The notes: generated from the letters alone by a model not told the origin. A stretch of DNA of 64,000 nucleotides from Psilocybe cubensis (GCA_017499595.2 CM039002.1:2914001-2978000); one strand, 5' to 3'. Shown: positions 6,001 through 39,193, counted from the first letter of the stretch. A program made the numbers and translations.

Positions 6001-7240
6001 TGTACGGCATATACCTAACGAACTTGTATGTATCACTATAATTAAACGATGCTGTGCCACTATAGGGTACAATATGACTTTCTATTAAAGCAGATGAAAC
6101 GAAGCGAGAAAAATTTACAGCACTGTCTGTAAGTTCAAACTGCCGATCTGGATTACAAGAAGATGAATTGCTCTTAATTTTTCTATCTGACACTGATACC
6201 ACACGTTCAAAAATACAGACATTACGAAGGCAAGTTCCGCACACATGATCACGCAAAAGTTCAATGGCATTGCCTCTATTTGTGGTTGAATTGATGCCGT
6301 ACACTCCATGTAAACTTGCAATAGACCTAATTTCAGAAACAGACAGCCAACTAGCAGTGTCAAAGAGAGAGAACCTAGCAACTATTAAATCAGATATATT
6401 GTCAATGGAAGTTGAAATGTGAGCGTCTGTAGCAAGGTACTTCACAAATCTGTATTTAGTTTTAGCTTGAACGGAGGCACATCCCGTATCTTGTACCACA
6501 CGGTATCGCAAAATCTCTGAGCTGACAACCTTTGAAACACCGCCACCTCCGCCTTGCAAGACATCGGAAGGATGATAGTATGAGCATTCAGAAACATTAG
6601 CAGTAAATGAGATGTAGTGGAAATAGTTGAGACCGAATAACCAGGAACACTGAAACGGATACATTAGAACGCCCTTCGATACTATATTAATGAAGGGATA
6701 TTTCTCTGACCAAAGACGAGGTTGCGTGTAATGTCTGTCGAGCGTGAATTGATGCAAGGCGCATCTTGGCAAAATGGCTACCAGGCACCTATTATATTCC
6801 CACTTCCTGAGATGATTACGTTGGAGCAACAGAGATACTAAAATAGAAACTCTACGTGTATACGTTGCAGGCGTGAATCTTAACCACAAATAAGCCGACA
6901 TTGAATGACAATCAATATATATGAAGCGGCGAAATTGCGAGTGCAACAAACGCACATTTCCATACGAGTGGGACTGTTTGACGGGTATCTCAGAAGCGGA
7001 CGTAGTAGTACGATACAAGCAATGCATAACATGAACTAATACTACAGTAAGACGCACTCTACAAACTTTGTGCCCACTTGATACGCTGCTAGATCTAGTA
7101 CATGTACGACTACGCAATAGATTATTGCCAGGAAATCGAACATCGTAGGTTGGAAATTCCCCACAGGGTAAGCAAAAGTCTATTGACCAATTATTTGTTT
7201 TAAACAACTGTTGATTGACAGCTATACAACTACTAAGCAT
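1..7240 (-). CDS. Helitron RepHel transposase (DUF6570-like region + HUH Rep + PIF1-family helicase), intronless, 3'-truncated by the window edge
   Basis: One frame appears open from 7351 to base 1: read by hand at both ends and at the motifs, and the ORF track lists no stop-terminated ORF in this frame. Motifs in frame: SLANHLWLGKIPSQLQDLSFAERMMIAR (~5170-5255), Rep FITLSPAD (~4115-4138), YYGTVEQQGRLTLHLH (~3860-3907), YYISDYISK (~3155-3181), Walker A GGMGGTGKS (~1553-1579), LAPTGTAA, FIDEISM (~1310-1330), GDFAQLPPV (~1190-1216), FAMTDYSSQGKT (~297-330). First in-frame ATG is at 7240; the true start could be downstream. Confidence 0.95.
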   Translation of the reverse strand, partial: MLSSCIAVNQQLFKTNNWSIDFCLPCGEFPTYDVRFPGNNLLRSRTCTRSSSVSSGHKVCRVRLTVVLVHVMHCLYRTTTSASEIPVKQSHSYGNVRLLHSQFRRFIYIDCHSMSAYLWLRFTPATYTRRVSILVSLLLQRNHLRKWEYNRCLVAILPRCALHQFTLDRHYTQPRLWSEKYPFINIVSKGVLMYPFQCSWLFGLNYFHYISFTANVSECSYYHPSDVLQGGGGGVSKVVSSEILRYRVVQDTGCASVQAKTKYRFVKYLATDAHISTSIDNISDLIVARFSLFDTASWLSVSEIRSIASLHGVYGINSTTNRGNAIELLRDHVCGTCLRNVCIFERVVSVSDRKIKSNSSSCNPDRQFELTDSAVNFSRFVSSALIESHIVPYSGTASFNYSDTYKFVRYMPYIRDLESFLSAEASAPHKRRLVLCRFSIQSATKWLTSSELRDVLKEHGITSFNSKTKKSALIKLTDGHECGICSTHLYIFEAIPSTVNSEESIMHNRNQNVLHKRASRERQRQAGAESANSDVDMLNGDAFVSTSDSDHTSNDHVFPPQPPSKLLIEEIINGFCADSSASLLEEAGCMVCGLLQPLHNLTHLSMFDHPLDILAVEGATRVERLHPDDPVKDIPGPVIDPACNHVCDTCSAALKKGHVPRHSLANHLWLGKIPSQLQDLSFAERMMIARIRHNRCLVRVSSGRAKMTANVIMYSNPTLKVYHELPPSKPELDEVLAFIFTGPTQPTEEEFKRSPMLVRRNKVADALEWLKLNHKDYIDLEISKKNLQSYPLIGVPVAVDYRQRNGTNRMESTMSLHDEGEDEGTVDGPCPFTVHGLSGTDYGNMSIQALKAKALQHIENEGKMLAIGHDPKPQSMYDNPQAYPQMFPWLFPYGYGGIGQHCHKRKLSESEHKRILLMHHDKRFQRDLYFPIIAFNHEQLKGGVTGSFLVAKRRNFDAISKRLLSIDKTVLQDISSRLVNGDHVSPETDSEKDCYKLLDDLDHVGGYVKGSITSKKYMRNEIWSLLSFKGCPIWFITLSPADNRHPISIYYAKEQLTFTPDILPSSERNRLVAQNPVSAARFFHLIIELFIKHVLGVGSNIHRGLYGKTSAYYGTVEQQGRLTLHLHMLLWIENCLSPQQIRDRIMNNDSAFQASLLSYLEGCHQGEFLTGNMQTVKDRVPHIYDKEIDGLHSIIQEDDEAVNSSYADPTLTLPIPVEHACQDSNGPDHCTSCISNAEWWDNYETTVDDIILKSNVHRCTVSYGQQIDDPDGSKGIKNMPKGPKGCLDWNGNCKARFPRRLYEQSQVDHVDGHIFLKKLEAMLNTFTLPLSYLTRSNTDVTCLLSGTSIKAIIYYISDYISKPALKTYQIFTSMYDVFEREEKKVKDDVKIEGKDAGRRLMLKIVNSLSSKMEIGSPMASLYLLGNPDHYTDHTFVPFWWRSFVSDARSSHKSGITDDQAAHLPTVEDLENAEDEEQKVILARHDGHYVGSSNVDDYKYRPVTQEDMSLFDWIRSYERRKLTKNEMERLRSETLTFEDDHASDIREGGGMEDFIDACLGIPADDDSDQRVKYDGVRKNIKINKRSFERFTEEHPLYSTHVVKCDSSRAHNIVPNFLGGPLPRRDKGDREYYCCSMLTLFKPWRSGLDLKSLHQTWEHAFTIYAFSDRQLKLMDNFNLRYECLDDRDDFHAQLRRKDGEQQDVYTDELYPDGCGLDDQYNDFVGLEFGEDHLDYEEIGEAYRREVLLKREVDGIIQSAGLFSNASSDVTCQEVSMFRPAEYKTHTSWASLIKAEKIRLFKQKLSGYVPSDPSDDITNIHISNEESTNDVKVVSSDYLLRSYKAKQMEHNVLVDSTVADFTLNTEQERAFRIVANHASLLSPGQLRMHLGGMGGTGKSQVIKSIIHMFESRGESHRFVVLAPTGTAAALLNGSTYHSVLGIRSKSDRGQDFSKNEVAVINDVRARLKGVKYIFIDEISMLSSRDLYAISRRLSQVFNDDTLFGGISMILAGDFAQLPPVGNLPFYSPSIKHTQDARMKVSEQEATLGKIFWHQFTTVVILKQNMRQKTQTEEDAKLRTALENMRYAACTDADISFLKSRLASKLTTIEGKPILTDPAFRNVSVITAWNNQKDRFNEQGIARYAKESGRTLHHFFSVDSLGTQEGETRRPRGRPSGSSKATKQTKMSQRLQEALWGRSACSSEQVPAKLSLCVGLPVMIRHNDATELCITKGQEAVVVGWESSVGAFGRPVLDTLFVELIRPPNPVSLADLPVNVVPLTRTSSRVTCTLKSGTKINVNRQQVLVLPNFAMTDYSSQGKTRDYNLIHLDHCKDHSSYYTCVSRSSNASGTILLGRFDASKITKGISGHLRQEFRELNILDHITTMKYNGQLPDGVLHGLRNPTIRSFMLLDVSQSIG

Positions 7241-7973
7241 CGATATTGTTCGAGAATCACCAGCATAATTGGATGCGTTCAAGGAGTGTACATTAATGCA
7301 ACATTGTATGTGGCCACATAGGATTCCTACAAAATAGCGACAAATGTCAGATCATACACAGTACACATAAGGAGAAGATAACTCACCCCAACCAGAAACT
7401 AAAATAAAAAGAGCGTAGAAATGAAGTGATGCGGCGAGCATATATAAAAGAGTAATGTAAGTTTCAAGGTAAATAGATATGTTCACTAGTCTGATGGATA
7501 TGAGTGTGAGATCGATCAAGGGGGGGGGGGAGGAATGTGTAGGAATAATTAAAGGAATCGCATCGAGGACCCTCGATTTATATAAGTAGACACTGACAAC
7601 AGGTAACACCGGGTAACTCTGTGTAGCGTACGATTATTGACAACGGGCGCTTAAATTTTGGCAGAGGGGACACGCAAAGGAAAAGCATATGTCCAACTGT
7701 AATGCCATGATAATATGTATGTATTATTATATCGGGAGAAATTTGTACGGAAGACAAGTAGAATATGATACGAAGCAGTTGATAAGACAGAATACTAACT
7801 GGATATTCAAAGATACAGGAAGCAGAGTACAAATGACACGAAGAAAGAACAAAAACATTGAAGTAATAGACTACGCGACGTATATGATACCAAAAAATAA
7901 CAACAGATAGCAAGGAGAATGTAAATAATACCATAACTATGTGTATTAAAAGACATTAGGTTTAATGAAATAT

Positions 7974-10900
7974 TCAGTCTTCATCAAAACCTGCAAAGGA
8001 CTCCTGTTCTGCCTCTATGTCGCTGGTATCGTGTTCCGTACCGAACACAACGGCATACTGTATGTTGGTACACAGATGAAATGACCGTTCCTTCTCGTAT
8101 TGAGTCATAGTGTACGCCACCATAACAAAGGAGTTAGGTGGAATCTCTCCGCGACGCCATCTAGGTAGCAATTCGTCTAACCGGTCGAGGTCAGTGTTGA
8201 AATTGAAGGCATGGTTACGTGAATCATATATGGGAACTAATATATGACATTGTCAGTGGTTTGAAGCACATACAATGTTGATAACTTACTAGTGTCGGTT
8301 GAATCCATCATGGTCTTGAACCTGGTGCTTGATTTAAGTGCTTTTCGGCTTCCTCCTTGGAGTTTGGCATCTTTCTGTCCAGAAAGTATGCCGGGTGTCC
8401 TAGGAGGTTTTGAAGGAGAGATTGATTCCCGCTCCGCTATTTGAGTGAGTGTCTGAGTGAGTACAAAAAGAAAAAAAAAAAAAAGTAAGCATATGTGCCC
8501 ACTGACATTTAACTCCCATAGTGCCAAAGGTGATTGCCTTATCACGGATAGAGGCTACCATAACCTGATGTCCGAACGCCATGCAAGCAAATCCAGCGAA
8601 GCGTTCCCACTCCTGGTGCATCATGTGACCAGACAAAAATTTGTTACACAGTCCTTTGGATATCGGCTCCAATAGATACGAATCGCGGGTGAGAATTGCA
8701 CTCAGGCAGATAGCAGGCACCGAGTTGCACTGCAAAGTGGCACGCTTACGATCGTTTCCCATATACAGGATGCTGACGTCCAGAGGCGAAACCCGCGAAG
8801 GATTGATAAAGTTCTTGTTCCTTACAAAAGTCACAGCGTCATAAGCGTTTCTATATAACATAGTAGAGAGAGTAAGCAATACGCATCATTAAGTAAAGTA
8901 TAGCAAAGGCTTTACGAAACTCACTCAAAATTCATCTCAGGGAAATTCTCACCGCAGAGAGAAAAAGAAACACAGTCGACTGGTGCCATGACATTAGGCG
9001 AGTTCCATTGCTTGAGAATACCATGCCTTGAAATAGTCAAAACAAAACATCGATTATCTTAGAAGGTAAAAACTTACTGAAGATTGGGAAGGTCAACGTA
9101 AGTGCTTTCTAAAAGACTATCTTGTAAATCTGTCTTCGTAACTTCGCATTTCTTCGGCAGATGTCTTAAGGTCAGACACAAATCAAGTCAGACAACAGAT
9201 TGAAGATGACATATGGGTACGTTAACTTACTTGACCGAGAAGCGCATGGTATCCTCCATCAGAGCCGGCCCGTTCAATCCAAGACTGGGAGTTTTGTTCA
9301 CAGGACCGGCAGGCACAACATCCTTGAACTTGCGGGGAACTCGAACTGGAGTGACAGGTGTAGGGGGAGCTTCAACAGCGGCATTGATTGGAACAGCTGT
9401 CAAAGAAGATTGAAACTGCACTTGTCGAGTTTTTGGCTGTTCAGAAAGACTGGCCATAACCACATCAGAATGCGCGTCGATAGATTTGGCACTGTTGAAT
9501 AAAGGTAGATAAAGACGATCACATATATTGGCATGACGGATATTTACCTTATTACAGACGCCTTAAATTGAACAGGGGGGTCCAAAGTCGAATGTTCGGT
9601 TTTAAGAGCATCTGCTTCACTGTACTTTTCATACGCATCATCGAGCGCTTTGAGCAACTTGCTAGAGGAAGGACCGCTGGGGAGAGCATTGGAAGATGGA
9701 TAAGTGGTCTGATGCATTCGACTCTCTCTGACCGCGTGCCTGATCAAACCCGATTAAGAAGTGATAAAAGAAAAACACCACAAATGAACATTACTGACGC
9801 AAACATCATAGCTTCATCTTCGTGAAGATCGATTGGACCGCTGGGAAGAACAATGCGAATGGATTTGCCTTTTCCTGGAATTCTGTAAATCAAGTTAAGT
9901 GATGCTCACGTAGACTTTTAGAGCATACACATACTTGGTGCCCAAAATGACTTCAGGTGACGGCAAGAAGGGGTTGATATCAGAATCAGCATCACCCTGC
10001 AAAGTAATGGGTGGAGACAAAACAGCAGATCCAGAAATTTCAGACCCAATCTTCAGCGGAGACACCGACAGACTAAGAGCAGGACGTCAGTCAATCGCAA
10101 TGTGGAATAAAAGAGAACGGTACTCGCTCGATCGCAGCTTCCGAACGCCGAGCGGATCTACGAATCCCAACAGAGCCCTTCTTTGAAACGGATGATTTTC
10201 CTTTGTCTTTCTTTGTGGGGGTGGACGCAACGTTATCCGGTGCAAGAGGGATATGAACATCGACAGACTCTTTCTTAACCATAACTTCAGAGGGCAATAC
10301 GGACGTGGGACGAGCAGATGCTTCTTGCTTTATGACAATGCCAGGCTCTTGTTTGATACGGACCGTTTGGGGCATTGTCTTCTGTGGCTTCTTGCCTTTC
10401 TGTTTATTCGGTTTTGCTCTGACAGGAGCACGAATTGTAATACGCGGATGTGAGAACGTATGACATAATAACATAAAAGATGTAAATGATAAACATACCC
10501 GCTGGTAGGATGAACAGAGACCATTTCATCCGCGGATGAATCATCGACTAATATGGCATCACTAATACCCTTCTGATATCGGGCGTTGGCTCTGTTCAGA
10601 GTATCCAACGGTATTAAGCAGAACGAAATAATGGCGAGATTTGATACAAGCAGTAAAACTTACGAATTATCGACGACTCGAATGACTTCGACCGAAGAAT
10701 CACTCGAGTAAGATACGTGATTGACAGTCGCATCAACGTTCGCGCTGACGGATGTACGACTCTTCTTCGGAGGGGAAATTCGGGCTCTGAGGTAAATATA
10801 TAACAAAACCAAAATATCAGCATAACATAAGGGTTATCAGATTGCAATTTCACTAACGGCAACTCCTCATCGGAACAAACGAGCGCAGCATCTTCGATAT

Positions 10901-11441
10901 CGCGTTTCCTATAACGACAATAAAGTAGTCAAAACAAAAGAAAAAAAGTGCGGAATGTGCAGCTAAAATCATACAAGCCACTTGTTGACCTGGTCTTCCT
11001 AACAAAATTGTCCAACGCATCTGATCCGCTGCAATACAGAGATAAGAAAACGGAAGGAACGCATGTAAACGACGTGCGTGATTGAAGACACAGGGTAAGA
11101 TAGTATGGGATACACGTACGCAACAGTCTTGTTCCCCGGTTTGACGACCTTTGCGGCAGCAATGCGAGAGGCGACGCTGTCTAACGGTCCGTCATCAGAG
11201 TCAGTGGCAACAGAAAAAGAATCTTCTTTGTTGTCGGGTTTGACGTGGATTATGACGTTGCGAATGCCTTTTGCAGGACGATGTCTGTTACAACGCACAA
11301 CGTTTAAAATCATAAACTGTACATAGAATAACATGGAACGGCTTACTTGTATTCAGCAGAGGGCGAGCGATCACCAGCAACCACATCGGCATATGTAGGC
11401 TTGGGAGAAGCAGGAGCATAAGCAGAGTTGATGGAAACCAT
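7974..11441 (-). CDS. Helitron accessory gene B, multi-intron; long low-complexity N-terminus, C-terminal beta-rich domain with acidic tail
   Basis: GT-AG-bounded exons encoding FINPSRVSPLDV, HQEWERFAGFACMAFG and VPIYDSRNHAFNFNTDLDRLDELLPRWRRGEIPPNSFVMVAYTMTQY...NIQYAVVFGT...FDED*. The start (MVSINSAYAPASPKPTYADVV, 11441) and 5' exons are provisional. Confidence 0.65.
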
Positions 11442-12459
11442 AATGTGATTGAAACGATAAAGAGACTTAGGAATACTGTAGATGATAGAGCTCGAGGCAG
11501 GTAGAGCGTCGAAGATGGAAAGCACTAAACAAAAAAAAACCAAGGTTTTATAGAAAAGGTTATGAGACAGCATCACAAGAATTCAACATGATAAATACTA
11601 CTTGGAGAAACATGAAAAACAGAGAAAAAGGATAATAAAATCCATGAGTTGATACGGAGTAGAAAAATGCAAAGACTAACGCTCGGTACGATAGAAAGCG
11701 ATGAGTGGAAACGCCTTTAGCGAATACCATACACACTCCCGAAGCCACTGAGACAAGCAAGTCAGCACGAATAAGATATTACGCGTGATGAGCGTACCAA
11801 GAGCAAACACCATTGTACAGGAGCGATTGCCTTAAGGGATTAAAGACGCCAAAAAAAATGATGGACCAAAATTTGATGTAAAAAAAAAGCCGACAGATGA
11901 TGGTCGCACTACGCATAAAAACACGAAAAAGGTGAACTAGGCGAAGCGACACGTTGATGAGCAAAGGCAAAGAGCAAGCAAAGCAAGAGGAGCTCCATGA
12001 AACGAGAAAAGTAGGCACTCGGTACACCAAATCAAGTTAAAGAACAAATGCAATTTAATGAAGCGCGTCATATGAGGAGACGACAACACCATAGATGAAC
12101 AACCGACCTAATGCCGCGGTCGAGAACAGGAACACCAGGGAAGAGGAACATATGAGAGCGAAGTAGACAGGGTCAAAACGGCGCCGATAGCGAATAAGCA
12201 AGGAGGAAAAATATATGAAAATTTTACAAAATGATCGGTGGTAACAACAACCGGAGAGGAGACAAAACATTAACAACCAGTACGAACCAAGCACGACGAT
12301 GAGAACGGAACAGTAGCAGATTTCGGACAGAAACGGAAAGATTACACAAGAGGGACACACGAATACGAGTCGGAAAGCGAGAAACATCATAAAACCAAAC
12401 GGTCAAACAAGGCCAAAAAAAAAAAAAAGTGAAACAGAATCCCACCCTCAACCAATTGC

Positions 12460-13590
12460 ATGGACCCAAACTATAACCAATACGCTGCGCAGGCCCTCAT
12501 GGACCAAGGGTACTGCGACGCCCGAAAATCGATACACGATGCTATGCCGGTGGTAGACTTTCAGGTATTTTACATATTCATATGGATGGACGAACATACT
12601 GACGATTCCAAAAACACGATTGACAGCTCGAAGATCATAGAGTGGTCTACGTAGAACAACCTCGCTCGTGGAGAATTACACGAACGAATTCCACTGAAGA
12701 ACAAAACTTCTACGTGTACGGCGCAATATGCAGAAACGAATTGCCGCCTATTAAATTAAGGTAAATGATATAACTATATATACAAAATGCATACCCAACT
12801 GACCCAATCGTAGTGACGCAACACCGTCTATGAAGAAGAAAGCGATATATCTTCGACAGGGAGTTAGAATTACCGGACTGCGGAGCAACGGATTCAACGA
12901 CGATGCGGTTAGTATAAAGCATGTACACGAGATGATGAAGACATACCTCAAAAAGGAAGACATAGAGGTAAAGCCGTGGAACTTAAGCATGTACGAAGGT
13001 CATTGGGCGGTCGACGCAAGTACGCGTTACTTCACACCTAGAAAGCATGCGCCGACAGAAGCAGGACTGGCGTTCGATATGGGTGTAGATCCAGACGGCG
13101 TGTTGGCGCACATGAGAGGAGACGATCTCATACACACCATGGACAACAAGGTCGACTATTTGCGAGAAGTCAAAAACGATAACGGTACAAGGTGAGCTTT
13201 GTGGTACATCTCATACACAGCGGCATACTAACAGTATCCGATCAATGACTCAGCACATCGCGTGTGGTTCCCAGCGTGTTCAAAGTTGGAGACATAGTCC
13301 GAGCGACCATAGCATTCATAGGAGTGATGCACAAAGACAAAGCTGTCGCGATGACCACAGTTCTGAGAGCGCTTACGCTCATACATGATGTGGTTAGTGA
13401 GGCAAGCATGTTCAGGGAAAATGAATAACACTGACCTCACAAACAGCAAGACGTACGAAATGGCCCAGCAGAGTTCATAGAGAATGACGCAGAAATCGCG
13501 AAGATACCCGTCATGAAGCGCCGTCGAGTGTATGACGAAGATAGAGAAGTAAGACAAAAGATGGAGGACATGACCATACACAGAGAATAG
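12460..13590 (+). CDS. Helitron accessory gene C (5 exons), uncharacterised, C-terminal KRRR basic patch
   Basis: Four GT-AG introns splice into one frame: MDPNYNQ...VYGAICRNELPP...YLRQGVRITGL...STRYFTPR...VDPDGVL...HTMDNKVDY...PSVFKVGDIVRATIAF...LRALTLI...KRRRVY...HRE*. Divergent from gene B. Confidence 0.8.
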
Positions 13591-14102
13591 AAGAGAAATG
13601 AATATCTTATATTAAAAACATTAGTTGTTAGTATATAACTGCACATTACGCTGACAGAAAGACATAAACAGTTGAAAGACTACATGGCTATCAGGATGGA
13701 ATCTTCACATCAACATCATTTAGAGCGCGATAAAGCAGATAAAGCAGTAGACATATCCACGAGAAATAGACGGCCTAACAGAGACGCATATTGAGGCAGC
13801 TTATGCACAATAAGTACAGACAAGTACATAAAAATATGGTACTGTAGCGAAAACAAAGGAAAGGAATCAAATATAACGACAACGCGCACAGACGGCAACT
13901 AACATAGAGGATGAGGAAGAGAGAGAGAAAAGGGGAAACAGTCTCACGGTGCGGCATAAACGAGCAGCTCGCGAAAAAATTTCGGCAATAAGCGAATGAA
14001 CAAAAGATCAGAATACATAAGCAGAACATTCATTTTGGGAAATAAATTCCCGCGGAAACGCATACCTGACATTGGCCACCTGAGAAAGGCCTGGGAAAAA
14101 GA

Positions 14103-26057: not shown

Positions 26058-26242
26058 GATAAGTTGAGGCCCAATATGAGAAGGAATGGGTGTCCACCGC
26101 GACAGCAAATGCGAACTGACGTAAGCATCCCCTTCCCAAATATTTGAAGTCCGCTTGTACTCCGCTTAATAAACTGGGGAAATCGGTTCAACTTTCGACC
26201 GACCAGAACACTGGCCAAGCCAGCGACACCGCAGATTTTGAC

Positions 26243-27815
26243 ATGGCCCCTCTGGTGGACGACCAGAACCCTCTGTATTGCCCGGGTATAACTGCGGATG
26301 CGTACTTGCAATCACTTCGGACAAGTCTCGCATTTCAAAGCGTTCATAGAATGGTTCCTCACAATCGGGATCTTTCTCGATCGTTCGTTCGTGTCTTTGG
26401 AAGGCTTTTACATAAAGCAGACTCGAGCTCTGAGGCTAGAGAAGATACGTTCATGGATACTTGCGATCTATCGGCTCAAGGATGTCTGGTTGACCACTGC
26501 TCGTCCGAGGATTTACCCCCCTATTCTCCCTTGTCTTCAGCTCGGGAGAAACATGATGCTCAGGGCACACAAGGACGTCAGACAGAAGGCATTCCTCTGA
26601 AGCGGAAAAGCCATTTCAGCGATTTCTATGCCCCTCCAAAGTATGCTCGGTCTTTGGAGTCGCCTCATAATAGCTCTTTTGATGTCGAGACTTTCCACGA
26701 AACACTTTGTTACGATGTTTCAGGTTCAACACCACAGTTCACAGATACTTTGGCGCAGAATAAGGATGATGTCTCTATCTTGCTAAAAACGTTTCGTGGC
26801 CTCTTTCCCGACTTGCATCTACAAGACAAACTTGCCAATGTGGATCCGATCACCGTCCAGGCTATTGCAGATGTCCTTTGCGAGCATGGTATTCCGAATA
26901 CGTCTTATTCCGTGGTTTTAGTAATATATTGCTACAGGTTATATAAACGAACGATCGCTCAAGGTTTTGTGCTATACATCCGTCGAGCGCATTATCCTTG
27001 CTCCATCCATGTCCGACGAAAATGGCCTCAATCTTGCCAGGGATGGCATATACTCTGGTATTTCTTCCTCAAAGCTCGTTGTTCAACGCCGTAACAATGT
27101 TCTAGTCTTCAGGCACACCGATGGGTTCCAGACTTTGACTGAGCTCTCTTTTGCCGGTATCCGTATCAATGATTCCGACATTCAACATATTCAACGTTTG
27201 CCAAGGCTCTCGATCCTCCATTTAAACGAGGTTGGCATTGGGAACGAAGGGTATTTGCATCCATTTAGTTCTGTATCCATTGACGCCAAAGATATGCAGC
27301 GTATTTCTTTTGGTTTCTCTCAAACATACTCTTACAAAACTCTTTCTGACGGCCAACCACGAGGTTAACAACGATGCTGTTCCTGCTCTGCTCTGCCTCA
27401 ATAACCTGGTCTTTCTGTCTATTCTGGACACTGGTATTGATATGGTTGGATTACGGCGTTTGGCTGGACATATGCACAAGGAAGACCACGTCATGGATAT
27501 CGAAATACCCTTCTCCTGTGAAGCATACGTTGACAGTACGTCGTACTTTTTTTCTGTTATTGTTGTAAATAACTTTCAAAAGACATCGCTTCTCAGTATC
27601 TCTTGCATCCCATACCACCATTGATCACAAACCCGCATATATGCAGTCATCTATCGTCTGCGGCCCTCAAACGCAACCTCGAGGCCCATGCAGCGCGAAA
27701 TTCCTCGATCGTCGCCTCTGGTACACGCCTTGAAATGATCGAAAGGTTGACTAAAATCCTGGAGACTAGGTTGCTTGACCTTCTGGTTGTTGAAATGCTT
27801 GATGGCGGCTGCTAA
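26243..27815 (+). CDS. Leucine-rich-repeat (RNI-like) protein
   Basis: Spliced exons give LTELSFAGIRINDSDIQHIQRLPRLSILHLNEVGIGNEG and LTKLFLTANHEVNNDAVPALLCLNNLVFLSILDTGID (LxxLxLxx repeats). Head-to-head with K4, with ATGs 186 bp apart. Confidence 0.8.
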
Positions 27816-28035
27816 TGCAAATCGCTGTGATCTGCTTTTGCGTGTTTCTTACAACATTGTCTCCTCTGCACTTCGTAATTGGTGATCGTGCTATATTAGT
27901 TCTCGATTTGCTTCTGTGACGTGTCTGCACATTGTTATTGTTTGTTTTTGCTGTCTTCTGCACCATTTTCTTATTGCAAACTGGTCACCCCATTCTACGT
28001 TTTTGCGAAAAAAATCATCTTGCCCTAGCGATTCC

Positions 28036-30197
28036 ATGCGACACATCTCTCACAGCTTCTGCTTGTTGCTTGGTATATCGAGCCTATTGTTGTCAGCATG
28101 GGCTGGATCATCACGCCCGGCATCTCTTCCATTGTCATCCTTTCAGCGTATCCAACTATCGCATATAACCACGGCTCCGATTCGGAATATATCCAGACTC
28201 TTTGCTTCAAATTACTCGGAACCTTTTGCTCATGGCGAAACTTTATCAACCACAGATGGACCTCTTATGTATGAGCGGGTTATTCGCCAAGCTGTGCATC
28301 TCAAAATTCATGGAACACGTACCACACTTTCCATGGGGCGTCACAGAGAACAGCGATATTCTCCCACTGTGCCAACCAGTATGGTGACTCTTAGGTTCGT
28401 CTTTATTATCCAGTGTTGCTTTCTCTTGGTGGCGGGAATTTGTCTTCTCTGGGTGTTCTCTTCACCGCGTGGTATAGGTCCTTTCTGTCAAAACTTGTGG
28501 ATCCTACTATCGTGGACTTCTAAGCTCTTTTTTATTCGGCCTATTACATGTTATTGGGAGATGGTCATATGGATCGACAATTCCATCGATTATCTTATTC
28601 CTTCGCTTATGCACGCTTTTGCTTCATTGAGCGAACAATGTAATCGCATTCGCGACCACCTAAATGCTAGAGAGCGGGAATGGGAAAGAGTTCATTGCAT
28701 TTTACGCAAAAAGGACGCTCGCAGACTTCACGTCAGGCCGTCTGGGCAAAAATCTGCCACCCCGCTATTCAGGGAGCAAGCTTCCAAAACTATCAAGCAT
28801 CTCTATCTTCCAGAGGAGCGGGACGATCCGTTGAGGCACATGCGCGACCCCCGGCATTTCAGCCATTTGCAGAAGATTGGTGCCGGCGCCTTCGGTAGCA
28901 TCTGTCTCGTCGAAAATAGAATCACGGGGAAGAAGATGGCCATGAAGTCGCTCCGTAGGAAAGATAATACCAGTGAGGAGATCAATTTGGAGATCCGTGC
29001 TTTGCTGCGCGCTCAGGAGAGTGGATGGTTCCCAAAGTTGCTGAGTACATTTATGGATCCCGTCAACTTTTATATCCTGATGGTAAGCTCATGGAACATA
29101 AACCTTGCATTTATTCGCACCATTCACCAGATGCAAACATTAGCCATTCTATCCACTCGGGGACTTGTACACAGTCATGACCTCTTCTGGAGGTTGTTTG
29201 AGTCGGGAGCTTTGTCGATTCTACTTAGCGGAACTTGTAATAACGCTTTTATGCCACTCGTACCATTCGATACTCACAGTAATCCCTACAGATTCTGGCA
29301 TTGCAGTGTCTCCACAAAATCGGAATAATTCATCGAGATATCAAGCCGGATAATATTCTATTTGAAGAAACAGGCCACCTCGTTGTCGCAGACTTGGGCG
29401 TGGCACATGTCTTCATAGAAGATGAGGAAGATGCCACATTTATGGCGGATGAATACCCTCTATGGGAGGAGATGAAGTTTATCAACGACGATGGGTTTCC
29501 GCTTCTTACTCCGAGCATCGATAACCCGCACACGATCAAGGGGGTGGCAGGTACACCCTTTTATGCTGCTCCAGAGGTGCTTGAGGGTCGACAATATAGT
29601 TATGGCGTGGATTACTATTCTTTGGCTATTGTGTATCACGAAATGGTGACAGGATATGTCAGTTATATCCTTGAAAGTAGCAAACGCGGATGTAGTGACA
29701 GCTTTTTTTGCAGGTGCCTATACAATGTGGGCCGTGCTTGCCAGGACAATCGGAGCCAACCATTACACTTGACCTTGGAAGGAAAGACGTGCATTTCCAA
29801 CCGCTATCAGTTTCAGACTACGACTTTCTATCCCAGGTATATATACAAAGGTGCGCGATCATCAGTGTGCTAACGCGAACTTGGAATATAGATGCTAGAT
29901 GAGGATTGTTATGCTCGCCCGAGTGTAAAGCAAATGAAGAATCATCCGGTTCTTGCAGGAATGTAAGTCTTTTGTCATTTATGGTTCTTTTCGAGCTCAT
30001 AGCCATTACAAAGCGACTGGGACAAACTCTCTCGTCGTGAGGGCCCGATACCCCAACCGAAAGTGTTGAGAAAGAGAGTCCCAATCAGTCCTGGTTTTGA
30101 GAGATGCTTAACCATTAGGTACGTACATATCTTGATGATCCCTTGCGTCGTTAGACAAAAATGCTGACTTTATATCTCACCAAGCTCTCAAGCTTGA
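28036..30197 (+). CDS. AGC-like Ser/Thr kinase with N-terminal signal peptide and transmembrane segment
   Basis: KIGAGAFGSICLV, MAMKSL, HRDIKPDNILF, ADLG, GTPFYAAPEV, GVDYYSL, HPVLAGIDWD. The first exon also encodes MRHISHSFCLLLGISSLLLSAWA and FVFIIQCCFLLVAGICLLWVF. Stop is at 30167 or 30197 depending on the last intron. Confidence 0.85.
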
Positions 30198-30485
30198 GAA
30201 TTCGCTTTAGTGGCATAATTTTTTTTTCGAATTTTCTTTATTCATGTCATTTATTTGTTTTGTCTACGAGATCAATCTTTCTATGTGAATATCATCAGGT
30301 TTTAATTCCGTGACGGTCCACCGCATTTCAAACACTCAAGACAGGACTTAGCTTGCCAATCGGCCTATTCATTAAGTTTGAGGGTACCAGTTGAGGCGAG
30401 CTAAGAGTGAAAAGGGGCTATCTCCGTCTAAATCATCTAGTCTATAATTTACCGTATCTCAACTCAGCTTGTCAGAGGCAGGTTG

Positions 30486-32339
30486 TCAGGTCTTGAACTC
30501 GAATGATTCTACCCGGCGAATGCACTTCGGTTGTGGGTTGGTTTTTTCTTCCTCAGTGAGGAAAAACGGCCACATGGGTATATAACACATCTCCTGCCGT
30601 AATGTACATTGTAAGTCTTTCAGCTCCATCGCTCGCACATTAAATTCACTAACCTCATAGCCGCATGCCGGGTTGCACCTAACCCAGTAGCTCCAGTCAA
30701 GCCATTCCATCAGACCTTTCACTCGATTTTTCCAGATCACCAAGGTCTTGAAATCTGTACCCGTTAATTGCTGTGAAGGTAGTTCGATATCCGGTCCATC
30801 CAAGCCCATCACCATCCCTTCGGCCCAGATTCCAACTAGGGCAGTACATATCTGTTTTGAAACCCCGTTGATGGATTTGACGATGAGCTGCTCAGAGATC
30901 GCCAAATTAAACTGCTCCAAGTCTCTAGTATGCGCATCACTGCACTGTTTATAAACAGGCAACGCCCAATCATGGTTTGTACCCAGCGTTGTGGGCATGT
31001 TGGACAGAGATGACCAAAGTAAGTAGGGGGCAATCATGCTGGAAACCTGGCGATGAGCCTGTTTTAAAGTCGCGTTGTAGTCGGTGTTGCCATTTGCAGA
31101 GCTCAGAATGTAGTGTAGTAACTCAAGCCTCTCTGCGTATCGAGTGACGACGACATTTTGCAAGCTGTTCCAATCGAGGCCGTTCCCGGGGTCGGAGGAT
31201 CCCTGGGTCAAAAGGGCATCTAGTCGAGCTTTGAAGCGATTTACTTCCTGTGTGGTGATCTTGTCAAGCCTATGGGCGCGACGATCTTTACCTGCACGGG
31301 AACTATGGAGATTCGGGAACAAGGACGTGTCGTAGAAGGAAATTAAACGTGAATAATCGAGTTTGATGCGCGTTTCTCCTGGATAGTGATTGTGCCAGGT
31401 TCCAGACTCTAACAATCTATATGCTGTCGAAAGGCGCAACGGATATATTTGGGGATTCTTTGGGTTGTCAGGAAAAAATGATTTGTGTCGTGCATTGTCG
31501 GCTGCTATGATATTTAGGAACGAAGAGATTTTGACGCCTCGAGAGAAATCGCAAAGCATGATCTCGCTACAGTGATTTAACACTGGCTTGCTTTGAAAAT
31601 TTTCGGAAATGAAGACTTACAAATTTATTGCCATTCTTTTTGTGCTGGTGAGACGACGTACAAGGCGTTATTAGTTCCAGCAGACGTACCTAAGAAAGCC
31701 ATCCAGTGCGTACTGCTGCCCCCATTCGCACAACCGTCCAATCCTTTCTCCTTCTTCCCATGTCTTATTCGGCATAACTTGGTCCCAAATCAGTAGGTCC
31801 TGACTGTCCATCACTCCTTCCGACATCTTGGCTGCGCTGCTTCCGTCAAAGTACAGCAGTTTTAACGGACGTGTGGTCATCAGAGTCAAGTGCCAGCATC
31901 CCGAGTCCGTCGACAGACTGCGACAGAAGCTGAATGAATGCTCCGGATCAGTGGCGACCCATTCAGGACTTTGTGGTACCTCATTTTTGGATGTGCCGTG
32001 GTACAACAAGGTGCCTACCGGTACTTCCGCGGCAACAACGGTATGTCCTGAAAGGTTTGCAAGTTAGTTTCGTTGGAAGCATGCGATGTGAAGATACTCA
32101 CCGTTTCGGTACCTGGTATTCGGCCACTTTTGAAGAAGGGATGACACCGTATTGAAGATCAGATTGTCTGGGCTGTGCACCGCACCCGATTCAAAAATCA
32201 CGTCGTTGGCAAACTCTGATTTGTCTGAAGAACTAAACAGGTGTTGGCGGCTGAGACCATATGCAAATGGTGCACTCGTGATGAAACAAAGATACATGGC
32301 ATAAATAGGCCATCTGAAGGAGCTGTCTCCCAACAGCAT
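30486..32339 (-). CDS. Uncharacterised fungal protein, probably secreted, paralog 1 (LYHGT family)
   Basis: NLIFNTVSSLLQKWPNTRYRNG, GTLLYHGT, PEWVATDPEHSFSFC, RPLKLLYFDGSSAAK, LDGFLR, microexon MAINF, EIMLCDF, LMEWLDWSYWVRCNPAC. Paralog at 48160-50097. Confidence 0.85.
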
Positions 32340-32564: not shown

Positions 32565-34745
32565 TCATTGCTGCTGCTCTGGACGATCTCGAGCCTCCAC
32601 CCAAGCATTTTCTCCAGGGACTTTGATTTCCCACTCCGTTTCCAAATTGACTTTAGCGCCTCCAGCAACTTTCCACCTCCATTCATATTTCCCCTCCTTT
32701 TCCCCTCCCTTTCCATCAACAAGCGGCTCCCAGCCAACACGGAGCCCATCTTTGTTCAAGTCCACATATTTGCCATCCTTCGCGTCCGCCAGACCCACAG
32801 GCTTGCGGAGCACAATAGACGCCCCCTTGTCATCGGAAGTTGGAATGACATCGCGCACCACGAGGTCAGTAATCTCGAACTGGTGCTTGTTGTGTATGGA
32901 TATCTTCGTGTTATACGTCGTGGTGTTGGTGACCTCGGAGAAGTGACCTCCATCTGATTTGACAGTCTTTGCCGTTCGCGAATAGGTCACTTTCGTGGAC
33001 GCATCGTCCCCAAGCGTGCATTCGAAATTGTCGCCCGTGTTGATGTCCTAAGAAAGCGTCAGTCTGGCCGTGTTCTGTAATTTGATGGTATAGCCTACGT
33101 TGATGGAGGTTTTCGATACAAAGCTGTCGTCGAAAATAACACTGACAGGTCCTGGTAAGAGGCGGTATTCGCTGCTGTTCTTCACAACACACTGTTGGCC
33201 AGTCAGAGAAGAATAAAATGATAGAAACAGTAGGCCGACCTGCAAAAAGACCCTAGGGTCGATTCGGGGGATACAAATGTAGGAAATCGTCGCTTCAAAG
33301 GAAAGCAGGGCCACAGATACTTGGTGTTCTACACCGTCGCTGGGGATGGTGGACTCGCCGTGGACACAGAAGGAGACAGCAACGGGCGTCTCTGAAACGA
33401 CAGTAGTGGGCTCCAAAATGGCTCCAGGGCTTGCAACTTCTTCAAACTCATTGTACAGACTAGAGCTGTCATCGACATGGAGTGTCATGTCTTGTAGCGT
33501 TTCCGTACCGGCAGCTTGTTGCCCAACCATTGTGGACCCGAATGCCGAAGGCACGCGGGCAGTACTTGATCCAAAGAGGCCGCCACGGCCAGTGCCAAAT
33601 TTCCCAGTAAATTTTGGATGCTGCGGTGGTTGACCAAAAAGTGATTTCCCTGGTCCAAAGTCCGTGTCCGAGGTCTGTTGCTGGACATTCTGTGTGTTTG
33701 TAGGTAAGCGGACGGGAGCTACAACATACGAAAAAGGTTACCGAAAATCCTACGAGTCCCTTCTGGAACAGAACAACCTTTGGTCTGATTTTGACAGGGT
33801 AGAGCTCCGGGATGCGTTTGACGACGGTGTCAGATGCGATAGTACTGAGAGTGAGTGTGGCGTTGTTCCAGTCCTCTCCCGTGCTCTGGGTAACTCGGGC
33901 TCTGTAGTGCAAAGACACGGAGGATGATGGTTTGCCATTCACAGTCGTGGCGTGGAGCTCATATGTGGGAGTCCATTTAACATTGCTAACGACTGCAACA
34001 AGATAAGTCGAGATAACGATGGATGCGTATAAAGTTACACACTATATGTCAATTTCAGCTCAACCTGGGTGTCCGAGTCGGCTACAATCACGATGTCCAC
34101 TTGGCCCAAGGCAGTACCCTTTTTACTGGCACTCTCGGAATCGTGGAGATCGATTTGGCGCGTGATGGCTACGATTTTCTCGTTGAGTTCAGTGATCTCA
34201 ATAAAAATTCAGCAAAATCACTCGTTATTCAAGTAGAAGGTTGGCTTACAGCTGACACAATCTTATGACCGCGTTCGACATAGCTCTCCAAAAAAAGGCC
34301 CATTTGAGTAGGAGTGACATGTTCTCCATTTAAAGTCTGAGCATACTGCCACAAAAGCTTTGACTCTTGTTCTCTCACAGCTTTCTCGCTCTCAAGGGCA
34401 GCCTTCTTCACTAACAGAGTACGCTTGATCTCAGCAGCACTACCTGGAAGATACAACGCAGCGTTGCTGTCTGCATGGGTGCATGTAACATCAAATAAGC
34501 GGGCATCACCAAGGCCCGAGACTCGAATCGACTGCGTGTCGATACAGCTTGAAAGGCCTCTTATTTTGATCTTATTTTGCCCTGTCTGTACAATACGAAG
34601 ATGTCGAAAACCATTGCTGCTGGCTTGGAATGTTGAGACTTACCTGTAACTGTAAAGAGAAACATCTAACGACCTCTGCTTTGGATGACTTGAAGACAGT
34701 CACCGACTTGATAGAGTGTTCAGACGCCTCAATGATCAGGGCCAT
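32565..34745 (-). CDS. DUF4139/DUF4140 (MuiA/F37C4.5-like) protein
   Basis: HSIKSVTVFKSSKAEVVR, SIRVSGLG, VSLHYRARVTQSTGEDWNNATLTLST, STIPSDGVEHQVSV, NSSEYRLLPGPVSVIFDDSFVSKT, LVVRDVIPTS. Confidence 0.85.
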
Positions 34746-35822: not shown

Positions 35823-36370
35823 CCGCCAGATTTCGATGCTCGGCTTTCGAATCGTGCTTTCCACTAGAGTTATCACTTTACAGGACTTTTCATAATGGGC
35901 AACTGTTTCTAAGGGCAAAACCCGCGAACAAACGCCCAAACGTCCACCGTTTTGCCTGTCTTTTGCTTCAAATCTTCTCATAACGCTCTGAAAATGACCA
36001 TATAGTCTCTGATCTGTATAATGAAACAATTTAAACAGTTACATTTAGTATCAGCGATTTAGGTATTGTATCTGTTGGATCTTGTTCTACAGCAAAATTG
36101 CGGCGTAGTTATTATTTTCCTCGGCAAACCCTAACCTCAACGACACCGATATCGTAACCTGCAAAATTTGGGGTAAATCTTTTTTATGAATGTCAAGGGT
36201 TTTCTCCCAACCGTATTTTGCTCTTCTTTCTTTTGTATTTATCGCTTCGGAAAGCCCCAAGAGCTCCATGTTTTAACGCCACGGCAATAAGACCCGACGG
36301 CAGCCGAAACCGGGGGTTATATTAGGACCAGAGTTTTTCGTCTTTTCTTGCTTTCTTCCTCACTTTCAAA

Positions 36371-37816
36371 ATGGAATCCAGGAGTGCACTGGCGGGAAAG
36401 CTTCAAGCTGCATTATCGTCTAGAGACGAGAGATGGATCCGTCGACGACTTCCAGATCCAAACACATCATCCTCGAATTCGCCGTTGATCGACTTTAACT
36501 CAAATGATTATCTATCTCTCTCAGCCTCATCAAAGTTGCGTTCCCACTTTCTCAACAAGCTCGCAGAGTCCCCTGACGTGCTAGGATCTGGGGGATCGAG
36601 GCTGCTTGTTAATGGACGCGCTCACGCAGCGTTGGAAGCTCGTCTGGCCGAATTTTTTCGCTCAGAGACCGCCCTCTTGTTCAACTCCGGGTTCGACGCC
36701 AACGTCGGATTCTTCTCGTGTATTCCTCAAGCGGGGGATGTGGTGGTCTACGATGAGTACATACACGCATCTGTCCACGACGGCGTTCGATCTTCGCGTG
36801 CCAGGGATGCCCAGTACTCGTTCAACCATAACTCGATGACCGACCTCCGGCAAGTTTTGTACCGTTTGAGGGAGGAAAAGGCCGCTTTGCGTACTGCAAA
36901 AAGCAGTCTGTTTCTCGCGGTGGAAAGCTTGTACAGCATGGATGGAACGTTTGCGCCATTGAAGGAGATTGCGGACATATTGGACGAGGTTTTCCCTCTC
37001 AAAAATGGATATCTGGTGGTGGATGAGGCTCACTGTACCGGGATATATGGACCACAAGGCAGGGGACGCGTTGCTATGCTCGGATTGGAGGGCAGAGTAC
37101 TGGCGAGGTTGCATACATTCGGAAAAGCACTGGCTGCGACAGGAGGTACGCATCTTTCTCTATTCCTCAATCGGTTTCTCATGTGGGGTCGCCTTTCAGC
37201 GGTGGTAATCACAAATACCCTTATTAGAGATTATCTATTAAATTACGCGCGATCGCTTATTTATACTACATCTCTCAGCTATGCGAACATAGTAGCTGCA
37301 GACTGTTCCTTTGATATGTTAATTGACGGCACTGCTCAGCACGTAAGTCGTTATATTTCTCCACCAACATCTTCAGGCTAATTGCAAAACTAGTTGTCCA
37401 ACCATCTGTTCGAACTATCCACGTACTTTACCGATACTCTCCGTCCCCTCCTCATATCCAAAAATATCCCGGCAGCGCTTGTCTCCTTGCCATCCCACCT
37501 TCATCTCCCGCCCGCATCCTCCCCACAACCCCCTTCCCCGATCATACCCGTTCTAACTCCCCATCCACGCCCACTCTCCGCGTATCTCCTCGCCCTGGGC
37601 ATGAATGCACGACCTATCACCTGGCCGACGGTGCCCAAGGGAAAAGACCGCGTGAGGGTGTGTTTGCACGCAGGAAACACCAAACAGGATGTGGATGCCT
37701 TAATTAAGGGGATCGTGGCGTGGGCACTGGAGACTATGAAAGGGGACTCGTCTGACAAGGCTATTCTATCGACTAGAAAGGTTGCGCTCCATGGACTATT
37801 AGAGAGCAAATTGTGA
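36371..37816 (+). CDS. bioF: 8-amino-7-oxononanoate synthase (class II PLP-dependent aminotransferase family)
   Basis: DFNSNDYLSL, GSGGSRLL, FNSGFDAN, DEYIHASVHDG, ESLYSMDG, VDEAH, HTFGKAL, PTVPKGKDRVRVCLH. Two introns. Confidence 0.92.
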
Positions 37817-38307: not shown

Positions 38308-38895
38308 ATGTCGATTTTCTACTACGAGCCCTTTTACGACTTCGAACAATTCCTCGACAATGCACTCACTACTCGCTCCAAACCAGAAGGGGCGATCCAG
38401 CTACGTTCGAAAGAAGGAGACAACAGTATCACCACATTGAGGCCCAGGTATGTGTTTGTTTCGTTGTTAAAGAATACCGGTTTACAGTCCTATCATCCGA
38501 TACAGAATGGACCTTCATGAAGACTCCAAACAGAACATCGTGACTGCTACTTTTGAACTTCCCGGTCTCAAGAAAGAGGACGTTGACATCCAGGTCAACA
38601 ATAATCGTTTGACCATCTCCGGTGAAAGCAAAATATCTACTGAGAAGGAAGAAAACGGATATGTCGCCAGAGAGAGGCGGTTCGGGAAGTTTTCGAGGAC
38701 ACTCCAGCTTCCTCATGGCGTCGAGGTCCGTCGGTGTTGCTGTATTTGCAACATTTTTTTCGCTCACGTCAATTTCCTGGTTTTTTACAGGACAAACAAA
38801 TCAAAGCTGGGTTGGACAATGGTGTGCTTACTGTCACTTTCCCCAAGTCTGTCGCTCCGAAGGCGCAGGAATCGAAGAAAATTACCATTAATTAG
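38308..38895 (+). CDS. Small heat-shock protein (HSP20/alpha-crystallin family)
   Basis: LRPRMDLHED, TATFELPGLKKEDVDIQV, RERRFGKFSRTLQLP, IKAGLDNGVLTVTFPK. Two introns; TATAAAA at ~38246. Confidence 0.95.
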
Positions 38896-39193
38896 TAATT
38901 TCTGCACTTGCTTCATCAATTTCCCATCCCTCTTAAGTCGTTTGTAAACGAGTTTTAATGGTACATTGAACGCATACATTTAAGCTCATGTTAATGGTTC
39001 ATAGTATGTTCATGGTTACACAAGATCAGTGGGACATTGAGTGGAGAATCATCTATTTGCCAACAATGGCGAATAGAATTCAGAGCTTCCGTCATTCTCA
39101 CACGCCGGGTGCCTAGTTCGTTTGTTACGTTAGTTTGCCGTTGCAACACAACCACAACATAAGTGCCCTTCCTCTATCATACCTGGGCTCACC

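Follow-up and report, generated by a model that had tools for sequence, protein, structure and literature searches.

A probable membrane-anchored, NDR-like AGC kinase of Psilocybe cubensis whose N-terminal module is missing from the public gene models

Gene structure and the N-terminal module

The stretch of Psilocybe cubensis DNA that was analysed here (64,000 nucleotides, GCA_017499595.2 CM039002.1:2914001-2978000), which we call the window and from whose first letter all of the positions are counted, carries on its + strand a protein kinase gene that, when read from the ATG at 28036, gives a product of 603 amino acids (aa). In this product, a signal-peptide-like start, a short N-terminal stretch and one to three putative membrane helices precede a kinase domain of the AGC type. 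A single stop-free frame of 349 codons leads from the ATG to a GT donor (GTAAGC) at 29083 and constitutes exon 1 (28036-29082); the open frame as such extends over 27886-29325, and 28036 is the first ATG in it. Two public products correspond to this gene letter for letter: UniRef A0A8H8CF56 with 376 aa and XP_047749480.1/KAH9481855.1, which is named "Serine/threonine-protein kinase 38-like" and has 412 aa. Both of them begin at Met192 (ATG 28609) and drop the 191 N-terminal residues, and the UniRef product ends early too, at the end of exon 5. The exact 412-aa RefSeq protein (P0007) is obtained from the exons 28609-29082, 29144-29236, 29292-29657, 29714-29836, 29892-29962, 30014-30118 and 30299-30305, and all six introns of this set have GT..AG ends. 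The gene ends in this set at 30305; the original prediction, which had been made from the DNA sequence by itself, placed the 3' end at 30197, which implies another last intron and was not confirmed, and the RNA contigs cover neither of the two ends.

The first 23 residues resemble a signal peptide by heuristic features, i.e., R2, the hydrophobic core FCLLLGISSLLLSAW and A-W-A ahead of G24. A mitochondrial presequence was also considered and set aside because the hydrophobic core is unbroken and the basic residues are few. The following stretch of ~95 aa (residues 24-118) has no Cys, a Ser+Thr content of 25% and two sequons, N51 (NIS, 28186) and N59 (NYS, 28210), which may be glycosylated; its conserved motifs are two short ones, IxLSH and HLKPRGSRT. 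Strong hydrophobicity marks residues 119-141 (Kyte-Doolittle mean over 19 residues, 2.71; Hessa-scale sum, -2.46), and they are the sole segment above the threshold after the signal in P. cubensis. A K/R-rich juxtamembrane helical stretch comes next, and the kinase N-lobe begins at residue 276 (Pfam PF00069). The original prediction had described just such an arrangement, namely an uninterrupted exon up to ~29082 with a signal-peptide-like start, a segment of ~90 aa with two sequons, a hydrophobic helix, a basic juxtamembrane region and the kinase N-lobe, and had argued that the fusion is not a splicing artefact; our analysis agrees with it on each of these points, as the N-terminal module and the kinase share one reading frame. 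The two downstream in-frame Met codons that it had pointed out, at 28609 and 28840, are likewise present.

Structural searches with the N-terminal module returned little. Residues 24-118 had no match in Pfam, the PDB or the ESM Atlas, the last of which was queried with residues 1-232, and a profile of residues 1-275 found nothing relevant in the PDB, its lone match being eL15 with an E of 0.71. The AlphaFold2 model of exon 1, which was based on seven sequences, left residues 24-118 without secondary structure, with a predicted local distance difference test score (pLDDT) of ~27, and placed one helix across residues 144-227; the whole model was poor (mean pLDDT of 48.7) and too weak to judge the packing of helices. 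A second model, that of a related Pholiota protein (eight sequences), was discarded, its mean pLDDT being 38.1 and its kinase domain poor as well.

Among the sequencing runs, X1 was taken as RNA by guess, X2 and X4 are DNA-like and X5 is nearly without this gene. Three GT..AG joints (27535>27583, 29236>29292 and 29657>29714) occur in X1 and are absent from the DNA-like runs X2 and X4; one of them lies in the upstream gene and the other two are introns 2 and 3 of the kinase gene. Moreover, one X1 contig is unbroken over 27926-28541 and in this way spans the ATG at 28036, the signal and the helix. The intervals 28542-28626 and 28893-29291 and the part beyond 29836 have no cover in X1, and thus intron 1, introns 4-6 and the 3' end lie outside the RNA contigs. 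The contig over 27926-28541 represents another allele, which is also found in the DNA run X4 and has 24 differences in 616 aligned bases as well as an in-frame insertion of 3 nucleotides (nt) behind 28123; no stop is among its listed changes. Two allelic differences are listed for the N-lobe and both are synonymous. Upstream of the start, the allele shared by X1 and X4 has about 10 substitutions within 27966-28021, and 87 bases of the intergenic leader 27838-27926 are swapped for 24 other letters in both of these runs.

Kinase domain

The sequence P0003, which is identical to the gene product from Met192, matches the Pfam family PF00069 (Pkinase) at 4.1e-45 with 154.7 bits. The glycine loop IGAGAFGS, the AMK lysine, HRD and APE could all be read, and the DFG position is occupied by DLG, in agreement with the earlier statement that the catalytic residues are intact with DLG in place of DFG. 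The AGC assignment is also upheld by the PDB: the best 60 matches, all of which we take to be AGC kinases, comprise NDR1, Cbk1, MRCK, PKA, ROCK, DMPK and RSK, with NDR1/STK38 at the top (3e-37), followed by Cbk1 (6.5e-32), whose match starts ~27 residues ahead of the kinase core. By its catalytic domain alone, the kinase is of the AGC type and closest to NDR1/Cbk1.

The NDR/LATS kinases (human STK38/NDR1, yeast Cbk1) are accordingly the nearest known system, as they provide the best matches with a solved structure, share with the P. cubensis protein a long insert between DFG and APE and are reflected in its RefSeq name. The P. cubensis gene differs from them in having a signal-like N-terminus and membrane helices, and no NDR, LATS or Cbk1 chain in the PDB was matched by the profile of residues 1-275, where the Mob-binding region would be expected. 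In NDR kinases, the insert between subdomains VII and VIII is basic and auto-inhibitory, and KRKAETWKRNRR is visible in the NDR1 insert of the PDB alignment; in P. cubensis, the segment from DLG to APE has 62 aa with 14 D/E versus 2 K/R, which bears out the acidic activation-segment insert that had been predicted. The activation-loop Ser of NDR1, which we take to be Ser281, aligns to Gly (...AFSTVGTP versus ...IKGVAGTP). IDWDKL, a further likeness to the NDR kinases, stands directly after the kinase core, and the tail after IDW has only ~35 aa, with a conserved ERCLT motif that is a candidate equivalent of the AGC hydrophobic motif. A Pkinase_C tail (PF00433) was not found at E <= 0.1 in P0001, a Pholiota relative whose C-terminus is complete. 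Because Pkinase_C is missing, the Ser is replaced by Gly, the insert is acidic and no NDR regulatory region was matched in the PDB, the protein is not a standard NDR kinase; rather, a catalytic domain of the NDR-like AGC kind is set here into an unusual framework. The ESM Atlas, when queried with the whole P. cyanescens protein, returned generic kinase clusters only.

Related proteins and conservation

When residues 1-275 were compared by phmmer with 1.84 billion representative proteins, there were four matches: P0002, the gene's own short model, P0004 and P0005. P0002 is an open reading frame (ORF) of 369 aa and aligned from residue 1 (4.3e-71); P0004 and P0005 are ORFs as well. The Pholiota conissans "kinase-like protein" P0001 (628 aa) came from a word-indexed search and was the only hit when exon 1 was searched as a single sequence among longer proteins. 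A profile search added P0006 (P. cyanescens, 515 aa), whose cluster includes P0008, a second P. cyanescens copy with 640 aa; a second profile search added no further members, both profile searches having been limited to ~8000 word-sharing candidates, which makes this weak evidence of absence. The family thus appears to be small, conserved and lineage-restricted, consisting of the P. cubensis gene, the two P. cyanescens copies, the Pholiota conissans protein and the sequences P0002, P0004 and P0005.

The same layout is found in four other proteins, i.e., P. cyanescens P0008, Pholiota conissans P0001 and the ORFs P0002 and P0004, and the homologs therefore keep a signal-like and transmembrane-class N-terminus. 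All of the five complete N-termini, including that of P. cubensis, have a hydrophobic core with small residues at -3/-1 (AWA/G, VLA/Q twice, TLA/F and ALS/Q), which is followed by 95-113 residues that contain one Cys at most and one or more sequons, and then by a transmembrane-class helix. The start MRH is common to three sequences, this gene, P0002 and P0008. The alignment to the relatives is in frame from residue 1 and reaches 50% identity over residues 1-275 in phmmer and 56% over the whole exon. The N-terminal stretch has an identity of 17-37% to the relatives versus 47-79% for the N-lobe (Table 1).

Table 1. Identity of segments of the P. cubensis protein to three relatives
Segment (residues)	P0002	P0008	P0001
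Signal-like start (1-23)	47%	47%	14%
N-terminal stretch (24-118)	37%	34%	20%
Helix and turn (119-150)	71%	37%	29%
Basic juxtamembrane region (206-275)	67%	58%	35%
Kinase N-lobe (276-349)	79%	75%	47%

The two P. cyanescens copies P0006 and P0008 are >90% identical and lie on one contig of 205,834 bases (locus tags CVT25_000548 and CVT25_000563), a placement that points to local duplication in recent times. Each record carries the LOW QUALITY flag, and in one of them the 5' end is predicted differently. A metagenome scan gave one locus, L001 (1-1625), which agrees letter for letter with P0004 where the two overlap; L001 is cut at its 5' side and added no N-terminus. The locus retains the end of exon 1 after ...NFYILM and the next exon, PYY...GDLY, so the position of the first intron appears to be kept in this distant relative. 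The features of the P. cubensis gene are collected in Table 2.

Table 2. Features of the kinase gene in the window
Feature	Position	Strand	Basis or remark
Minimal 5' leader in the RNA contig	27926-28035	+	X1 contig colinear over 27926-28541
Exon 1, 349 codons: signal-like start, N-terminal stretch, hydrophobic region, basic juxtamembrane region, kinase N-lobe	28036-29082	+	GT donor at 29083
Signal-peptide-like residues 1-23 (MRH..., hydrophobic core, A-W-A before G24)	28036-28104	+	Heuristic features, in 5 of 5 complete N-termini
N-terminal stretch, residues 24-118	28105-28389	+	Free of Cys; 25% Ser+Thr; disordered in the model; two sequons, N51 and N59
Conserved basic motif VHLKIHGTRT (consensus HLKPRGSRT), ~22 residues ahead of the helix	28294-28323	+	Alignments
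Strong hydrophobic helix, residues 119-141, then conserved FSSPRG turn	28390-28458	+	Hydropathy; 71% identity to P0002 over 119-150
Weaker hydrophobic region, residues 146-195 (LWILLSW..., CYWEMVIWI...)	28471-28620	+	Gapped where relatives carry a second strong segment
ATG of Met192, start of both public models	28609-28611	+	Public records, ATG scan
Basic helical juxtamembrane region, motifs I-x-RK, PLF, LYLPEE, RHM-x-DPR-x-F	28621-28860	+	Invariant alignment columns
Protein kinase domain, exons 1-5; introns 29083-29143, 29237-29291, 29658-29713, 29837-29891	28861-29962	+	Pfam; introns 2 and 3 seen in RNA contigs
Activation segment DLG to APE, 62 aa, acidic	29391-29576	+	14 D/E, 2 K/R; DFG in relatives
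C-terminal tail exons 30014-30118 and 30299-30305 (stop included), conserved ERCLT motif	30014-30305	+	RefSeq model; no RNA cover

Interpretation and alternatives

We consider that the gene encodes a genuine AGC kinase variant, which is restricted to one lineage and is probably an integral membrane protein. In its full form, this reading states that a Ser/Thr kinase of ~603 aa is made from the ATG at 28036 and that its catalytic domain is cytosolic, instead of the soluble protein of 376 or 412 aa, and we put its probability at roughly 0.55. According to the proposed mechanism, a cleavable signal peptide (residues 1-23) would direct the nascent chain to the endoplasmic reticulum (ER), the short stretch of ~95 aa, which is probably glycosylated and unstructured, would come to lie on the luminal or extracellular side, and the helix at residues 119-141 would be the anchor, with the later and weaker hydrophobic segments contributing zero or two passes. 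The cytosolic face would carry the juxtamembrane helix, which is strongly basic, and the NDR-like AGC domain, and substrates would be phosphorylated at the membrane surface. The N-terminal stretch would be an anchor, sorting or stalk element rather than a folded ligand-binding domain. Of this reading, the analysis shows an unbroken and conserved frame, RNA contigs across its start, hydrophobic segments and an affinity to AGC kinases; cleavage of the signal, glycosylation, orientation, catalytic activity and location in the cell are inferred.

Several observations weigh against this reading. Two independent public annotations picked Met192, and the main product could be a soluble, STK38-like kinase of ~412 aa that starts there via an internal transcript start, with the upstream frame being translated little or never. 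The context of the ATG at 28036 is indeed weak (T at -3, C at +4), no RNA contig bridges 28542-28626, and contigs cannot reveal the transcript start or one continuous mRNA. The N-terminal stretch is also fast-evolving: in residues 1-94, seven of the 12 listed allelic differences change the residue versus ~9 expected if the changes were neutral, which points to weak constraint. Additionally, two of the five layouts (P0002 and P0004) are raw ORF calls, and the whole family is small. We nevertheless regard a start at Met192 as improbable. The N-terminal extension was read as coding because 191 codons of an untranslated leader would not stay free of stops and in register between species, and here the frame is open and the alignment begins at residue 1; the start and the helix are conserved, and the full-length P. 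cyanescens and Pholiota models contain the N-terminal module. RNA contigs span 27926-28541, and no ATG was found in a scan of 27816-28035, the 220 nt upstream of the start. If transcription begins upstream, 12 ATGs (28036 plus 11 more) lie ahead of 28609, so that initiation at Met192 would depend on transcripts that begin internally. The membrane reading is also challenged by the idea of a decaying, lineage-specific paralog whose function in P. cubensis would be slight or absent, for which speak the DLG, which is particular to this species as the relatives carry DFG, the gap within the hydrophobic region and the high allelic diversity of the 5' part (24 differences per 616 aligned bases in one contig); the LOW QUALITY flag of one of the two P. 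cyanescens copies was counted on the same side. An intact frame with GT..AG ends at 6/6 introns, splicing in RNA, an N-lobe that is 75-79% identical to P0002 and P0008 and the synonymous nature of both listed N-lobe differences make decay highly improbable, and DLG is found in active kinases such as the TGF-beta type I receptors.

The membrane topology is the other point at which the preferred reading could fail. With a cleaved signal, an odd number of passes (one or three) would place the kinase in the cytosol, and an even number would make it luminal, contrary to what we propose. In favour of the single-pass protein of the original prediction, one segment is above the threshold in P. cubensis; against it, three of the four full relatives (P0002, P0008 and P0004) have two clear transmembrane-class segments after the signal, the second ~40 residues past the first, and in the fourth, P0001, one segment is clear and two more are marginal. 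At the position of this second segment, P. cubensis is gapped. Moreover, the stretch ahead of the helix is net basic (11 K/R versus 5 D/E) and includes the conserved basic motif HLKPRGSRT, which the positive-inside rule disfavours for a segment on the outside. These features would be explained by a different topology, either a cleaved signal followed by two passes, with the kinase luminal or outside, or an uncleaved N-terminal anchor with the basic 95-aa stretch in the cytosol and a hairpin anchor composed of a helix, the SSPRG turn and a second helix; the conserved five-residue SSPRG turn right after the first helix would fit such a hairpin. We find these arrangements rather unlikely, as the N-terminal cores are short (~16 residues, Kyte-Doolittle ~1.6) and have small -3/-1 residues in 5/5 cases, which is signal-like rather than anchor-like, and a luminal AGC kinase would be deprived of its usual substrates. 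The densest K/R cluster is located past the last hydrophobic segment, which favours a cytosolic kinase and an odd number of passes.

The original prediction had gone further and had called the protein receptor-like, a claim that found no support in a stretch that has no Cys, no match in Pfam, the PDB or the Atlas, a disordered model of low confidence and low identity to its relatives. A sensing role of this short outside stretch is possible but unsupported. In a bolder scenario, which we consider doubtful, the Strophariaceae/Hymenogastraceae would have evolved a receptor-like kinase of their own by joining an NDR-type AGC domain to a new module of signal peptide, stalk and transmembrane helix, and the glycosylated stalk, in which the IxLSH and HLKPRGSRT motifs lie, would respond to a cue from the cell wall or the outside of the cell and pass it straight on to the cytosolic kinase as a switch. 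If this were true, mushroom-forming fungi would possess transmembrane kinase signalling of an origin independent from the tyrosine kinase-like (TKL) receptors of plants and animals.

Comparison with known systems and significance

Several known systems share part of the proposed layout. Ire1 is a fungal type I transmembrane Ser/Thr kinase, but it has a folded luminal sensor, a C-terminal RNase and a kinase that is not AGC; its luminal sensor and RNase were not seen in the P. cubensis gene, whose kinase is of the AGC type. The plant receptor-like kinases, the animal receptor Ser/Thr kinases and the oomycete transmembrane TKLs show the order proposed here of signal, outside part, transmembrane helix, juxtamembrane region and kinase, whereas they belong to the TKL group and mostly have folded ectodomains, in contrast to the AGC kinase of P. 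cubensis, for which no outside fold was detected. The fungal cell-wall stress sensors Wsc1 and Mid2 resemble the proposed N-terminal part, having a signal peptide, a short, glycosylated and probably unstructured stalk that is enriched in Ser/Thr and one membrane helix; however, their cytosolic tail is short and without a kinase, and the Wsc domain is Cys-rich, unlike the P. cubensis stretch with no Cys. PINK1 also has an N-terminal targeting sequence, ~100 residues and a membrane helix ahead of its kinase, but the targeting sequence is a mitochondrial presequence and the kinase is not AGC, whereas the core in P. cubensis is uninterrupted and hydrophobic, as is typical for an ER signal.

The layout described here is rare in fungi, common to a few related mushrooms and missing from the public P. 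cubensis models. The original prediction had started from the view that fungi generally lack single-pass receptor Ser/Thr kinases apart from Ire1; the scarcity of transmembrane Ser/Thr kinases in fungi is reported in excerpts of PMC10463195, in which 54 transmembrane kinases are given for 18 fungal species, with the Ire1 homologs as the major family. Excerpts of a mushroom development atlas describe expanded TKL kinases without extracellular domains or secretion signals (bioRxiv 10.1101/349894), in Phytophthora infestans transmembrane domains are confined to TKLs according to a portion of PMC3019232, and a portion of PMC2939053 states that fungi are without leucine-rich repeat (LRR) receptor kinases. 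No account of a fungal AGC/NDR kinase with a signal or a transmembrane segment was found in the parts of the literature that were accessible, and Table S4 of PMC10463195, which is a list of fungal transmembrane kinases, may include relatives. Should the membrane reading be true, the signal and the membrane helices of this AGC kinase would tether an NDR-type enzyme to a membrane in a rare way, and direct transmembrane signalling in the Agaricales could have begun from such a protein. Kinome surveys that use the public P. cubensis models will class the protein as soluble because the 191 N-terminal residues appear to be missing from them.

Genomic neighbourhood

The kinase gene had originally been placed inside a kinase array and next to an LRR gene, and neither claim was supported. 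A hidden Markov model of three full-length family members matched five ORF pieces in the window, all of them inside 27886-30164 and hence in this gene; tblastn with P0001 against the window gave this gene alone, and Pfam revealed no second kinase on 30 of the 53 ORFs of at least 130 aa. The upstream neighbour (26120-27815, +) has in Pfam only a sub-threshold LRR_4 match (E 0.12; 13 bits, with the cut-off at 27) and a weak SAP-like match (E 0.23). Its TAA at 27813-27815 lies 220 nt ahead of the kinase ATG, and its intron 27536-27582 is seen as GT..AG joints in the runs X1 and X5. Since RNA contigs span the whole intergenic gap, the 3' untranslated region of the upstream gene and the 5' untranslated region of the kinase gene abut or overlap.

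Downstream, an open frame of 376 codons (30489-31616, -) was without a Pfam match at E <= 0.01. The further neighbours are ordinary ones and include a gene with DUF4139/DUF4140 at 32568-34639 (-), a class I/II aminotransferase at 36326-37378 (+) and an Hsp20 at 38471-38944 (+). At the left end of the window, an uninterrupted frame of 2450 codons (2-7351, -) runs off the edge and is probably a large transposon-type gene; its scanned part, 5002-7351, contains DUF6570 (1.5e-23) and a weak HeH/LEM match, and from the occurrence of DUF6570 we presume that it is Helitron-like. The region 6001-14000 has few long ORFs and stands apart from the remainder of the window by a strong strand bias of A over T (AT skew of 0.19-0.37) combined with a GC skew that is positive.

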